A stretch of DNA of 7,736 bases. Origin: a virus. Taxonomy: Duplodnaviria; Heunggongvirae; Uroviricota; Caudoviricetes. Of the stretch, positions 2,490 through 7,736 are shown in pieces. The DNA lies in the IMG/VR virus record IMGVR_UViG_648276645_000001. One strand, 5' to 3'. The translations under genes were made by a program, and so were the position numbers. The stretch's first letter is position 1. Each line of letters starts with the position of its first letter. Below the pieces are notes generated by a model that saw only the letters and a program-made list of their open reading frames with translations, ran no database searches and was not told the DNA's origin.

Positions 2490-2685
2490 TTCTGATCCTC
2501 TTCAAAAGGCTACCTGTTACTGGTCGATTTAAGTCAACCTTTACCGCTGATTCGTGGAACAGATATTCTCTTCCATCCTTAACCGGAGGAGGGAATATCC
2601 TGCATTCGCGCACCCATCGACGAACTGTTTCAAGGCTTCTTGGGCGTCGCTGGCGAGCGTTCCACTCCTGAAGTGTCAAGTACAT
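2467..2685 (-). CDS. xis: Excisionase (lambda Xis)
   Basis: 72-aa ORF MYLTLQEWNARQRRPRSLETVRRWVRECRIFPPP..., recognised as lambda Xis; 3' end overlaps the int start. Confidence 0.95.
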   Translation of the reverse strand: MYLTLQEWNARQRRPRSLETVRRWVRECRIFPPPVKDGREYLFHESAVKVDLNRPVTGSLLKRIRNGKKAKS

Positions 2686-2711
2686 CGCAAAGTCTCCGCA
2701 ATTACACGCAA
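2670..2711 (-). promoter_or_regulatory. pI-like promoter (cII-activated int promoter) with TTGC-N6-TTGC cII-binding repeats
   Basis: Minus strand reads TTGCGTGTAATTGCGGAGACTTTGCGATGTACTTGACA. TTGC tetrads at 2708-2711 and 2698-2701 (plus coordinates), overlapping the xis start as in lambda pI. Boundaries approximate. Confidence 0.6.
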
Positions 2712-2733
2712 GAAAAAACCGCCATCAGGCGGC
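2711..2733 (-). terminator. Putative intrinsic terminator hairpin (GC stem with 4-nt loop, then a T6 run on the minus strand)
   Basis: Minus strand CCGCC-TGAT-GGCGG followed by TTTTTT. Stem is only 5 bp. Overlaps the orf55 stop and sits just upstream of the pI -35 region. Lambda counterpart not certain (possibly a tL-series terminator). Confidence 0.4.
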
Positions 2734-2892
2734 TTGGTGTTCTTTCAGTTCTTCAATTCGAATATTGGTTATGTCTGCATGTGCTATCTGCGCCCATATC
2801 ATCCAGTGGTCGTAGCAGTCGTTGATGTTCTCCGCTTCGATAACTCTGTTGAATGGCTCTCCATTCCATTCTCCTGTGACTCGGAAGTGCAT
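2725..2892 (-). CDS. Small hypothetical protein (lambda orf55-like), 55 aa
   Basis: Not in the supplied ORF track (under 60 aa). Hand translation of the minus strand gives MHFRVTGEWNGEPFNRVIEAENINDCYDHWMIWAQIAHADITNIRIEELKEHQAA. Size and position (about 40 bp upstream of xis) match the small ORF annotated between xis and ea8.5 in lambda. Confidence 0.65.
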   Translation of the reverse strand: MHFRVTGEWNGEPFNRVIEAENINDCYDHWMIWAQIAHADITNIRIEELKEHQAA

Positions 2893-2980
2893 TTATCATC
2901 TCCATAAAACAAAACCCGCCGTAGCGAGTTCAGATAAAATAAATCCCCGCGAGTGCGAGGATTGTTATGTAATATTGGGT

Positions 2981-3262
2981 TTAATCATCTATATGTTTTG
3001 TACAGAGAGGGCAAGTATCGTTTCCACCGTACTCGTGATAATAATTTTGCACGGTATCAGTCATTTCTCGCACATTGCAGAATGGGGATTTGTCTTCATT
3101 AGACTTATAAACCTTCATGGAATATTTGTATGCCGACTCTATATCTATACCTTCATCTACATAAACACCTTCGTGATGTCTGCATGGAGACAAGACACCG
3201 GATCTGCACAACATTGATAACGCCCAATCTTTTTGCTCAGACTCTAACTCATTGATACTCAT
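2981..3262 (-). CDS. ea8.5: Ea8.5 protein (lambda early accessory protein, Cys/His-rich)
   Basis: 93-aa ORF MSINELESEQKDWALSMLCRSGVLSPCRHHEGVYVDEG...CPLCTKHIDD, recognised as lambda Ea8.5. AAGGAG RBS 7 nt upstream on the minus strand. Confidence 0.9.
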   Translation of the reverse strand: MSINELESEQKDWALSMLCRSGVLSPCRHHEGVYVDEGIDIESAYKYSMKVYKSNEDKSPFCNVREMTDTVQNYYHEYGGNDTCPLCTKHIDD

Positions 3263-3453
3263 TTATAAACTCCTTGCAATGTATGTCGTTTCAGCTAAAC
3301 GGTATCAGCAATGTTTATGTAAAGAAACAGTAAGATAATACTCAACCCGATGTTTGAGTACGGTCATCATCTGACACTACAGACTCTGGCATCGCTGTGA
3401 AGACGACGCGAAATTCAGCATTTTCACAAGCGTTATCTTTTACAAAACCGATC

Positions 3454-3765
3454 TCACTCTCCTTTGATGCGAATGCCAGCGTCAGACATCATATGCAGAT
3501 ACTCACCTGCATCCTGAACCCATTGACCTCCAACCCCGTAATAGCGATGCGTAATGATGTCGATAGTTACTAACGGGTCTTGTTCGATTAACTGCCGCAG
3601 AAACTCTTCCAGGTCACCAGTGCAGTGCTTGATAACAGGAGTCTTCCCAGGATGGCGAACAACAAGAAACTGGTTTCCGTCTTCACGGACTTCGTTGCTT
3701 TCCAGTTTAGCAATACGCTTAACAGAAAGGCCGGGAAATACCCAGCCTCGCTTTGTAACGGAGTA
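3454..3765 (-). pseudogene. ea22: ea22 C-terminal fragment (5'-truncated); fused in frame to antisense O sequence, giving a 179-aa chimeric ORF (3454..3993)
   Basis: C-terminal ~90 codons (KRIAKLESNEVREDGNQFLVVRHPGKTPVIKHC...DAGIRIKGE) read as real protein and lie 192 bp from ea8.5, the lambda spacing. The N-terminal ~90 codons (MFVRSSFGLLAVTTACCLLRL...) are low-complexity and are the reverse strand of O coding sequence. Upper boundary is approximate (junction between about 3720 and 3772). Confidence 0.65.
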
Positions 3766-3766
3766 G

Positions 3767-4021
3767 ACGAAAGTGATCGCACCTAACGATATCCGCCTGA
3801 TGCGTGAACGTGACGGACGTAACCACCGCGACATGTGCGTGCTGTTCCGCTGGGCCTGCCAGGACAACTTCTGGTCCGGTAACGTGCTGAGTCCGGCCAA
3901 ACTCCGCGACAAGTGGACCCAGCTCGAAATCAACCGTAACAAGCAACAGGCAGTCGTGACAGCCAGCAAACCAAAACTCGACCTGACAAACACAGACTGG
4001 ATTTACGGGGTGGATCTATGA
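3767..4021 (+). pseudogene. O: Replication initiator O, C-terminal fragment only (P-interaction domain); N-terminus and ori absent
   Basis: Open frame begins just after an in-frame TAG at 3764-3766. Translation ...IAPNDIRLMRERDGRNHRDMCVLFRWACQDNFWSGNVLSPAKLRDKWTQLEINRNKQQAVVTASKPKLDLTNTDWIYGVDL matches my memory of the lambda O C-terminus. Stop overlaps the P start (ATGA). No ori iterons or AT-rich region upstream. Confidence 0.85.
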
Positions 4022-4719
4022 AAAACATCGCCGCACAGATGGTTAACTTTGACCGTGAGCAGATGCGTCGGATCGCCAACAACATGCCGGAACAGTACGA
4101 CGAAAAGCCGCAGGTACAGCAGGTAGCGCAGATCATCAACGGTGTGTTCAGCCAGTTACTGGCAACTTTCCCGGCGAGCCTGGCTAACCGTGACCAGAAC
4201 GAACTGAACGAAATCCGCCGCCAGTGGGTGCTGGCTTTCCGGGAAAACGGGATCACCACAATGGAACAGGTTAACGCAGGAATGCGCGTAGCCCGTCGGC
4301 AGAATCGACCATTTCTGCCATCACCCGGGCAGTTTGTTGCATGGTGCCGGGAAGAAGCATCCGTTATCGCCGGACTACCAAACGTCAGCGAGCTGGTTGA
4401 TATGGTTTACGAGTATTGCCGGAAGCGAGGCCTGTATCCGGATGCGGAGTCTTATCCGTGGAAATCAAACGCGCACTACTGGCTGGTTACCAACCTGTAT
4501 CAGAACATGAGGGCCAATGCGCTTACTGATGCGGAATTACGCCGTAAGGCCGCAGATGAGCTTGTCCATATGACTGCGAGAATTAACCGTGGTGAGGCGA
4601 TCCCTGAACCAGTAAAACAACTTCCTGTCATGGGCGGTAGACCTCTAAATCGTGCACAGGCTCTGGCGAAGATCGCAGAAATCAAAGCTAAGTTTGGGCT
4701 GAAAGGAGCAAGTGTATGA
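4018..4719 (+). CDS. P: Replication protein P (DnaB helicase loader)
   Basis: 233-aa ORF MKNIAAQMVNFDREQMRRIANNMPEQYDEKPQVQQVAQIINGVFSQLL..., recognised as lambda P with the lambda length; translationally coupled to O' and ren. Confidence 0.96.
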   Translation: MKNIAAQMVNFDREQMRRIANNMPEQYDEKPQVQQVAQIINGVFSQLLATFPASLANRDQNELNEIRRQWVLAFRENGITTMEQVNAGMRVARRQNRPFLPSPGQFVAWCREEASVIAGLPNVSELVDMVYEYCRKRGLYPDAESYPWKSNAHYWLVTNLYQNMRANALTDAELRRKAADELVHMTARINRGEAIPEPVKQLPVMGGRPLNRAQALAKIAEIKAKFGLKGASV

Positions 4720-5520: not shown

Positions 5521-6044
5521 CTATCAAATCAAATACGCCAGCACACGACAAGGACTGCTGGCAAACGCCGCTTTGGCTTTTTGATGCACTGGATATTGAG
5601 TTTGGATTCTGGCTGGATTCGGCAGCGAGCGACAAAAATGCTCTGTGTGCTCACTGGCTAACTGAGGCCGACGACGCGCTCAATTCTGAGTGGGTAAGCC
5701 ACGGTGCAATCTGGAATAACCCACCGTACAGCAATATCAGGCCGTGGGTGGAAAAAGCCGCTGAGCAGTGCATACAACAGCGACAGACGGTAGTGATGCT
5801 TGTGCCAGAGGATATGTCAGTCGGATGGTTCAGCAAGGCTCTGGAGAGTGTCGACGAAGTTCGCATTATCACTGATGGACGGATTAATTTTATCGAACCA
5901 TCGACGGGGCTGGAGAAGAAGGGAAACAGCAAAGGCTCCATGCTGCTGATTTGGCGACCGTTCATCAGTCCTCGACGGATGTTTACTACCGTATCCAAAG
6001 CGGCATTGATGGCGATCGGGCAGGGCGTCAGGAGGGCGGCATGA
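5517..6044 (+). CDS. Phage-type DNA N6-adenine methyltransferase (Dam family, orphan)
   Basis: 175 aa from ATG 5517, overlapping the ninB stop (ATGA): [34 protein letters not shown]... Contains the NPPY motif (WNNPPYSN) typical of N6-adenine methyltransferases. Occupies the position held by ninC in lambda. No restriction endonuclease gene nearby. Confidence 0.85.
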
Positions 6045-6217
6045 GGCGACAGCGACGAAGTTTCACCGACATCATCTGCGAAAACTGCAAATACCTTCCA
6101 ACGAAACGCTCCAGAAATAAACGCAAGCCAATCCCAAAAGAATCTGACGTAAAAACCTTCAATTACACAGCTCACCTGTGGGATATCCGGTGGCTAAGAT
6201 ATCGTGCGAGGAAATGA
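6041..6217 (+). CDS. ninE: NinE
   Basis: 58 aa from ATG 6041: [58 protein letters not shown], lambda NinE-like. GGAGGG RBS at 6031-6036; start overlaps the methyltransferase stop. Confidence 0.85.
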
Positions 6218-6219
6218 CA

Positions 6220-6561
6220 ATGGATTATTCACAGTTAAGTGATTTTGAAATTAACAGAATGGTAGGAGACATAATTTTTAAAGGCCTTTGGGCAAGTAAA
6301 CCGGAAACATCAGGGAATAACACCAACAAATGGTATTACGGAAATGCTGATACAACTTTTGAGCCATTAAATCATTTGCCTGACTACTGCAATGATCCGA
6401 GCGCTTCATGGCCGATTATTGAGAAATACAGGATTTCTATCTTAGACCAGTTAACTGAATGGTGTGTGGATGCAAAAGGCGTAAGCCCAATATTTGATAC
6501 CAGACCTCTCCGCGCCGCCATGATTGTCTTTCTCCTGATGCAGGAGGCCAATAATGCTTAG
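6220..6561 (+). CDS. Hypothetical nin-region phage protein, 113 aa (possibly DUF2591-like; function unknown)
   Basis: [116 protein letters not shown]. Start chosen at ATG 6220 because GAGGAA (6208-6213) is 6 nt upstream; the ATG at 6214 abuts the RBS. Family assignment is from memory only. Confidence 0.6.
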
Positions 6562-6748
6562 CCCATCTCAATCCCTTCAATACCTGAAAGGAAGCATAGA
6601 GCGGGCTTCAATGTGCACAGAGTGGATTCTATCTAGGTTTAGCGCATACAGAAGATTGCCGGTAAAGGGCATGCCAAGCAAGTCGATGCTGCATATGCAA
6701 AAGAATGCGCGCTGGAAGGTATGGCGAGAACACAGGTTATCTGGCTGA
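6554..6748 (+). CDS. NinF-like small protein with a divergent C-terminus (mosaic), 64 aa
   Basis: Strong AGGAGG RBS at 6542-6547, 6 nt before the ATG. First ~20 residues ([18 protein letters not shown]) resemble the NinF N-terminus I recall from lambdoid phages. The remainder ([46 protein letters not shown]) lacks the Cys-rich motif of NinF. Overlaps the preceding ORF by 8 bp. Confidence 0.5.
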
Positions 6749-6767
6749 AAGAGGGGGTTATTAAGGC

Positions 6768-7130
6768 GTGAATACCTACAGCATCACATTACCCTGGCCT
6801 CCGAGCAATAACCGCTACTACCGGCATAATCGCGGGCGCACGCACATCAGCGCAGAAGGGCAGGCATACCGTGATAACGTCGCCCGAATCATTAAAAACG
6901 CAATGCTGGATATCGGCCTGGCTATGCCTGTGAAAATCCGCATTGAGTGCCACATGCCGGATCGCCGTCGCCGTGACCTGGATAATCTGCAAAAAGCCGC
7001 TTTTGACGCACTCACTAAAGCAGGTTTCTGGCTGGATGATGCTCAGGTCGTTGATTACCGCGTTGTGAAGATGCCTGTTACCAAAGGTGGGAGGCTGGAA
7101 CTGACCATCACCGAAATGGGGAATGAATGA
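6768..7130 (+). CDS. rusA: RusA Holliday-junction resolvase (endodeoxyribonuclease RusA)
   Basis: 120-aa ORF with GTG start: [97 protein letters not shown]..., recognised as RusA of the DLP12/phage-82 type. RBS AGAGGGGG upstream. Confidence 0.92.
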
Positions 7131-7267
7131 TGTTTGAGTTTAATATGGCAGAACTTCTTCGCCACCGCTGGGGGCGTCTGCGCTTATATCGTTTCCCCGG
7201 TTCTGTTTTGACCGATTACCGAATACTGAAGAATTACGCCAAAACCCTGACAGGAGCAGGAGTATGA
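7127..7267 (+). CDS. ylcG: YlcG-like small protein (46 aa)
   Basis: Not in the ORF track (under 60 aa). Hand translation from ATG 7127 gives [46 protein letters not shown], stop TGA 7265-7267. Start overlaps the rusA stop. Matches the small gene found between rusA and the Q-like gene in DLP12-type prophages. Confidence 0.75.
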
Positions 7268-7352
7268 AGTCAGAGATAACAATCAACTAATACTGTTTTG
7301 TTGATTTTTGCTTGTAATTGGCGTTTTGGTCTGATTTTTGTGGAGTAAGTTG

Positions 7353-7736
7353 ATGCGTGATATTCAGATGGTTCTTGAGCGTTGGGGAGCGTGGGCGGCT
7401 AATAATCATGAAGATGTGACCTGGTCGTCCATTGCCGCCGGTTTTAAGGGATTAATTCCTTCAAAAGTAAAATCTCGCCCGCAATGTTGTGACGATGACG
7501 CGATGATCATTTGCGGGTGCATGGCCCGTCTGAAAAAGAACAACAGCGATTTGCACGATTTATTAGTAGATTATTATATAGTCGGTATGACATTCATGTC
7601 ACTGGCAGGTAAGCATTGCTGCTCTGATGGTTATATCGGGAAAAGGTTACAAAAGGCTGAGGGCATAATTGAAGGGATGTTAATGGCATTAGATATCCGG
7701 TTAGAGATGGATATCGTTGTTAATAACTCTAATTAA
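7353..7736 (+). CDS. Q: Late-gene antiterminator Q (QuuD / phage-82-type Q)
   Basis: 127 aa from ATG 7353 (GGAG RBS at 7342-7345): [62 protein letters not shown]..., recognised as QuuD-like Q. Stop TAA is the last three bases of the window. Confidence 0.9.

Follow-up and report, generated by a model that had tools for sequence, protein, structure and literature searches.

What kind of gene, if any, is the 64-codon open reading frame (ORF64) that lies between ninX and rusA in a lambdoid prophage and opens as ninF opens? A sequence-only reading had proposed either a decayed ninF or a new small protein that had captured the ninF start, with one internal breakpoint at about codon 21. Our comparisons favour another answer, to which we assign a probability of about 0.8: ORF64 would be a scar left by recombination in the prophage's nin region, without a gene history of its own.

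The window, i.e. the whole 7,736-nt stretch of DNA analysed, represents the left arm of a lambda-like prophage that is defective and adjoins ybhC. Its genes run in the order int, xis, ea8.5, P, ren, ninB, Dam-type methylase, ninE, ninX, ORF64, rusA, ylcG and Q, the last being of the phage-21/DLP12 type. Annotations of phage ev207 and Escherichia coli strain 214-4 show the same succession of genes from ren through Q. The entire recombination, immunity and early control region is absent from the prophage (window 2685-4018); a reverse-strand ORF containing DUF1317 (3454-3993) follows xis and ea8.5, and an 82-codon ORF (3773-4021) abuts P at a place annotated in related genomes as a replication protein truncated at its N-terminus. 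None of the complete E. coli genomes in the collection is colinear with the whole window, the best covering 94% of it. The features discussed below are collected in Table 1.

Table 1. Features in and around ORF64 (positions in the window)
Feature	Position	Strand	Remarks and basis
ninX (DUF2591)	6220-6561	+	Pfam PF10765, E = 7e-17; annotation
Shine-Dalgarno AGGAGG	6542-6547	+	inside the 3' end of ninX, 6 nt before the ORF64 ATG; read directly
ORF64	6554-6748	+	64 codons, chimeric; product of 7.6 kDa, pI 11.0 (computed); older annotation 'protein ninF'
Segment 1, 5' end of P22-type ninF	6554-6608	+	codons 1-18 and first base of codon 19; blastn, three-way alignment, PHROG 672
Segment 2, 73-nt middle stretch	6609-6681	+	87-90% identity to the left edge of the type-B insert
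Segment 3, last 29 codons and stop of ybcO	6682-6771	+	DUF1364, PF07102, residues 68-96 of 96; pseudogene fragment
CGATG microhomology, junction 2	6684-6688	+	common to type-B insert, window and ybcO; three-way alignment
rusA (Holliday junction resolvase)	6768-7130	+	GTG start overlaps the ybcO stop (GTGA); 19 nt past the ORF64 stop
ylcG	7127-7267	+	46 codons; downstream of rusA

The strong AGGAGG ribosome-binding site that had been pointed out from the letters alone is indeed present, separated from the ATG at 6554 by the directly read 6-nt spacer CCAATA. This ATG overlaps the ninX stop codon as ATGCTTAG, the arrangement also found in P22 ninX-ninF, and the frame closes with the TGA at 6746-6748. 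Ribosome initiation at ORF64 is very probable because the Shine-Dalgarno sequence, the ATG and the ninX-stop overlap of ninF are all intact, and ORF64 is probably translated. In P22 the hexamer before ninF is AGGACG; the window has a perfect AGGAGG before the truncated gene, and the same change substitutes Glu for Asp in NinX. A promoter and terminator scan of 6300-6950 found neither, and an Rfam scan of 5900-7400 gave a single lncRNA match (E = 0.68) that was judged meaningless.

Anatomy of the reading frame

The alignments resolve ORF64 into three parts with two junctions, the last part being ybcO read out of frame; the donor changes at 6608/6609 and again at 6682-6688. The breakpoint anticipated near codon 21 was thus correctly located, whereas the idea of a single junction did not hold, since a second one follows and the C-terminal third comes from another gene.

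A blastn search with 6540-6775 against 50,697 phage records matched 6540-6616 to the P22 ninX/ninF junction (89.6% over 77 nt, E = 2e-20) and to the same junction in many P22-like phages, the alignment stopping precisely after codon 21. Among intact E. coli ninF genes, the closest (L126) is identical at 114/114 nt upstream and agrees at 56/63 nt over codons 1-21; counted per 9 nt, the matches are 9, 8, 9, 8, 6, 9 and 7, followed by 4, 2, 2, 1, 2, 4 and 2, which is chance level. Three-way alignment places the breakpoint itself at 6608/6609, inside codon 19, with an ambiguous tract at 6609-6616 where 5/8 positions still match ninF. At the protein level, 16 of the first 21 residues are identical to P22 NinF. 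The expected likeness of the first ~20 codons to NinF, in protein and DNA alike, and the departure after about codon 21 are therefore both borne out. The PHROG 672 (NinF) profile aligns with ORF64 residues 1-22 only (positions 1-22 of 58, E = 0.0031), as against residues 1-57 of P22 NinF (E = 2.7e-37).

The Cys-rich, zinc-ribbon-like motif of NinF is absent, as the sequence-only reading stated. Pfam model PF05810 (NinF), spanning the Cys-rich core (residues 20-44 of P22 NinF), finds no match in ORF64 and scores P22 NinF at 50.4 bits (cut-off 27.5). ORF64 retains a single cysteine, C21, where P22 NinF has five (C21, C24, C36, C39 and C40); its residues 24, 36, 39 and 40 are W, P, G and M, and the CxxC-x11-CxxCC core spanning P22 residues 21-40 is missing. 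NCBIfam returned no matches, not even for genuine P22 NinF. ORF64 thus shares with NinF (P22 gp58, lambda orf56) the position of its ATG over the ninX stop, the position of its Shine-Dalgarno sequence, codons 1-21 and the slot directly after ninX, but its homology ends at codon 19-21, its core and acidic tail are replaced by unrelated sequence and the next gene is rusA in the window and ninG in NinF systems. By these comparisons, ORF64 is best regarded as not a NinF: it has the homologous N-terminus and start site, and neither the profile match nor the Cys core.

Five of the 21 NinF-derived residues (L11, G13, I15, S19 and M20) differ from the sequence common to P22 and L126 NinF, although the adjoining 3' end of ninX does not differ from L126; L11 and G13 are polymorphic among copies of the chimera, others of which hold the NinF-like residue, a pattern that would fit recent drift. 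Length variation also occurs in the ninF-derived part: the 9-nt unit CAATCCCTT, of which the window holds one copy and a partial one, is present in three tandem copies in IMG/VR contig L083 (equivalent of window 6566-6585), an in-frame expansion that adds QSL repeats.

Across the phage collection and 5,426 complete E. coli genomes, the middle stretch has two settings and no others: the ORF64 chimera (type A) and a second arrangement (type B) carried by the Stx1 phages SH2026Stx1 and AU6Stx1 and by ~250 mostly STEC genomes. Type-B loci have a lambda-type ninF 5' end after ninE, the same breakpoint (after GAGCGGGCTT) and the same 73 nt, followed by a ~2.8 kb insert of 34% GC. The insert is flanked by ninF nt 1-49 and 151-192 (L127), and beyond it come the final ~20 nt of ninF, then the beginning of the next gene. 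Because the end of ninF reappears beyond the insert, the middle stretch represents the left edge of DNA that replaced ninF nt ~50-150. Types A and B diverge at CGATG. Type B thus differs from the window in having the lambda-type ninF 5' end after ninE, the insert rather than ybcO-rusA downstream, and no RefSeq annotation; most type-B counterparts of the frame contain an in-frame TAA, and some have GTA for the GTG start. The insert (L004 1298-1980; L127 3998-6801) contains hypothetical genes on the reverse strand, among them one of 275 aa without a Pfam match and one pseudogene, and looks like a moron, i.e. an accessory-gene insert. In IMG/VR contig L113 an IS5-like end (GAAGGTGCGAATAAG...) is inserted at CTAG in the type-B middle stretch (equivalent of window ~6637).

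Two other sources for the middle stretch were tried and rejected. As a diverged remainder of ninF, it aligns locally to the rest of P22 or lambda ninF no better than shuffled sequence does (p = 0.22-0.54), and its best score against the interval from ninF through KilAC/roi to DUF1364 in L126 falls below the shuffle mean. Of the two matches from a pattern scan of genome contigs, one is a copy in E. coli; the other, in a Bacteroidia MAG, has unrelated flanks and arose by chance.

The final segment is identical by blastn (94/94 nt) to the 3' end of the intact ybcO of phage PhiR34_1, whose gene order is ybcN-ninE-ybcO-rusA-ylcG-Q. Its own frame is offset from that of ORF64, and its TGA overlaps the GTG of rusA as in intact modules. 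In that frame it matches PF07102 over profile positions 62-92 (of 92) at 18.2 bits, below the cut-off of 29.9, where intact YbcO scores 138.7 bits; RefSeq labels the equivalent span 'DUF1364 domain-containing protein, incomplete, missing N-terminus'. The likeness to YbcO/DUF1364, the gene before rusA in DLP12 and phage-82-type nin regions, therefore consists of the 94/94 nt identity and the GTGA overlap onto rusA; it differs in that the first 67 codons are gone, and what remains lacks its own start and is read by ORF64 in another frame. The locus occupies the position before rusA, and as it lacks a full-length profile match and its own start it would not qualify as a YbcO. One database protein (P0025) that starts as YbcO shifts frame and finishes with the C-terminal peptide of ORF64. 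A programmed -1 frameshift at CAAAAG, joining ORF64 to the YbcO C-terminus, was considered and is not favoured: the site lacks a canonical slippery heptamer, and indels account for the database variants in the YbcO-fused reading (P0019, P0022).

Spread, variation and predicted fold

Searches with residues 22-64 retrieved only copies of the same locus. A word-indexed search of 5.8 billion clusters found just 11 proteins, all 93-100% identical and all fragments, frameshift variants or deletion fusions of the ORF64 locus; an exhaustive phmmer search of 1.84 billion representatives gave just eight matches, all at least 87% identical; and neither Pfam nor NCBIfam gave any match. By these searches, residues 22-64 do not constitute a protein family, and no full-length alignment of ORF64 to a conserved family, such as would mark an ordinary if divergent homolog, was found in Pfam, NCBIfam, PHROG or the two large libraries. 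Four of the database proteins (P0018, P0020, P0021 and P0023) come from other prophages, in which deletions have joined ORF64 residues ~37-64 to the N-terminal part of replication protein P (MKNIAAQMVNFDREQ...); these fusions span window 4018-4719 and 6660-6748, with ren through ninX lost, and represent further decay.

The chimera is present in 584 of 5,426 complete E. coli genomes (~11%), including Nissle 1917, ATCC 25922 and S88, and in 27 phage records, including the plaque-forming mEp332 and the ev/PhiR series. The exact ORF64 protein is recorded on at least 1000 contigs as 'protein ninF', and our literature search found no paper describing a ninF-ybcO chimera.

Variation was surveyed in 117 IMG/VR contigs that carry an 18-nt tag from the middle stretch, which yielded 62 ungapped type-A copies. 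The 64-codon frame is intact in all 62. Distinct changes in ORF64 comprise 13 nonsynonymous and 5 synonymous (pN/pS ~0.7), as against 52 nonsynonymous and 74 synonymous in dam, ninE, ninX and rusA pooled from the same contigs (pN/pS 0.17-0.25), a difference with Fisher p = 0.021 in a small sample and with kinship ignored. Part of the variation in the ybcO-derived segment was probably imported from intact ybcO alleles by recombination, and the polymorphism of ORF64 as a whole looks neutral, without detectable constraint. The stop-free frame in this sample is uninformative because it holds only 18 substitutions; 43 random codons would remain open with a chance of ~0.13, (61/64)^43, and the frame is open by luck. 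The downstream ylcG shows 16 nonsynonymous and 6 synonymous distinct changes in ~57 related contigs, a pattern like that of ORF64 and unlike that of dam, ninE, ninX and rusA; it has no Pfam match, and its standing as a constrained gene looks doubtful.

AlphaFold2 in single-sequence mode predicted helices at residues 4-33 and 43-62 (pLDDT 87, pTM 0.40). High single-sequence pLDDT values for helices are common in arbitrary helix-prone peptides, and the prediction has no power to tell a genuine protein from a chance sequence that favours helices.

Origin of ORF64 and rival readings

In the reading that we prefer, an ancestral ninF would have been interrupted after ~50-56 nt by foreign DNA, a state still seen today in certain Stx1 phages and prophages of STEC. 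A second join at CGATG would have led from 73 nt into the foreign DNA to codon 68 of ybcO, attaching a DLP12/phage-82-type module, ybcO'-rusA-ylcG-Q, and homologous exchange upstream would have replaced the ninE-type arm with a P22-type ninX-ninF 5' end. We infer this order of events (insert, ybcO join, upstream exchange) from comparison of the sequences. Ribosomes would then read 18-21 codons of NinF, 22-24 codons of the middle stretch and 22 codons of ybcO out of frame before terminating 19 nt short of the rusA GTG. The product would most likely be a functionless by-product; at most, translation of ORF64 may cover the ninX-rusA interval and free ribosomes near the rusA start.

Such a history has parents and precedents. 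Intact donors exist for both ends, ninX-ninF in P22 and L126 and ybcO-rusA in PhiR34_1. In the E. coli prophage L126 (1315-2496), ninX is followed by ninF, the gene for a KilAC antirepressor and a DUF1364 gene, ninF and the DUF1364 gene both being intact, and a nin region of this type, with both ninF and ybcO-type genes, is a plausible kind of parent for the chimera. Lambda can do without ninF and without the entire nin region (PMC10695390), and temperate phages readily gain DNA, the nin region included, from defective prophages such as DLP12 (PMC3945230). The locus shares with known lambdoid mosaic joints and gene remnants, products of homeologous or illegitimate recombination (PMC3945230, PMC2327257), its sharp identity transitions, a junction at microhomology, exchange of nin modules and remnants of the flanking genes; it is particular only in that both joints are intragenic and the frame remains open. 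On these resemblances it would be a case of ordinary lambdoid mosaicism. Counted against a scar are the intact frame in 62/62 contigs, its very common occurrence, plaque-forming phages included, a Shine-Dalgarno sequence stronger than the AGGACG of P22 and the confident AlphaFold2 helices.

Translation might matter even if the peptide is irrelevant, ORF64 acting as a spacer whose translation leaves no unread gap from ninX to rusA and brings terminating ribosomes to a point 19 nt from the rusA GTG. We consider this improbable, although it is compatible with the scar explanation and would partly replace the lost GTGA coupling of ybcO to rusA. The geometry speaks for it, with the ninX stop lying over the ORF64 start, the ORF64 stop at 6746-6748 falling 19 nt before the rusA GTG at 6768, and the ybcO stop overlapping the rusA start in intact modules. 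An open frame, however, arises by chance in ~13% of cases, and nin genes, rusA-type resolvases among them, are dispensable. Moreover, N-antitermination is expected, from established lambda biology, to make transcription of the nin region resistant to Rho-dependent polarity.

Distinctly less credible is a newborn functional small protein, expressed from a captured ninF start and kept as a useful basic two-helix product that, for example, binds nucleic acid or modulates a phage or host factor. The strong Shine-Dalgarno sequence and ninX-stop overlap, the intactness of the frame in every type-A contig sampled, its wide occurrence, viable phages included, and the two predicted helices would all suit such a protein. 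Against it, the DNA of the C-terminal 22 codons is 100% identical to an intact ybcO allele in another frame, so these codons have had no evolution of their own; pN/pS is ~0.7 against ~0.2 in the neighbouring genes; homologues beyond the locus are absent, frameshifted variants exist and pTM reaches only 0.40. A related version, in which a very young chimeric protein, created when two recombination joints put out-of-frame ybcO sequence after the ninF start, is translated and kept in ~11% of complete E. coli genomes and in viable phages for an advantage from its peptide or from rusA-adjacent translation, strikes us as a long shot as well. The new small protein of the sequence-only reading thus finds little favour here.

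The other half of that proposal, a decayed ninF, stands in so far as ORF64 contains a ninF remnant. Decay in place, in which point mutations and small indels would have erased the Cys motif without any recombination, is very improbable. A short patch just after the break (CAATGTGCAC versus TAACGTGCGC) and the GCAAAAC-GATGAG of type-B loci beside GCAGAACTGATGAG in ninF could be taken as its traces, but the alignment to ninF beyond the break stays at shuffle level (p = 0.22-0.54), identity drops abruptly from ~89% to ~25%, the last ~20 nt of ninF lie 2.8 kb downstream in type-B loci as insert replacement would leave them, and the final third is ybcO. Judged from these alignments, the 3' part of ninF was lost by recombination and replacement and not by decay in place. 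That ORF64 is an ordinary NinF homologue, full-length though divergent, as the public name 'protein ninF' implies, can practically be dismissed, given that the Pfam NinF model finds no match, PHROG aligns positions 1-22 of 58 and four of the five cysteines are missing.

The recombination scar thus favoured leaves no open biological question hanging on ORF64, and its value lies first in annotation. ORF64 is already catalogued under a misleading name; the present analysis defines its anatomy precisely and connects it with the STEC insert. The name 'protein ninF' stands in thousands of database entries though ORF64 keeps the first third of NinF and no metal-binding core, current RefSeq marks the ybcO fragment only, and neither label tells of the three-part scar. 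For the lambdoid phages, the locus offers a clean, datable case of nin-region rebuilding, in which one joint is common to the Stx1 phages of STEC and the other, at a 5-nt microhomology, brings in the rusA module.
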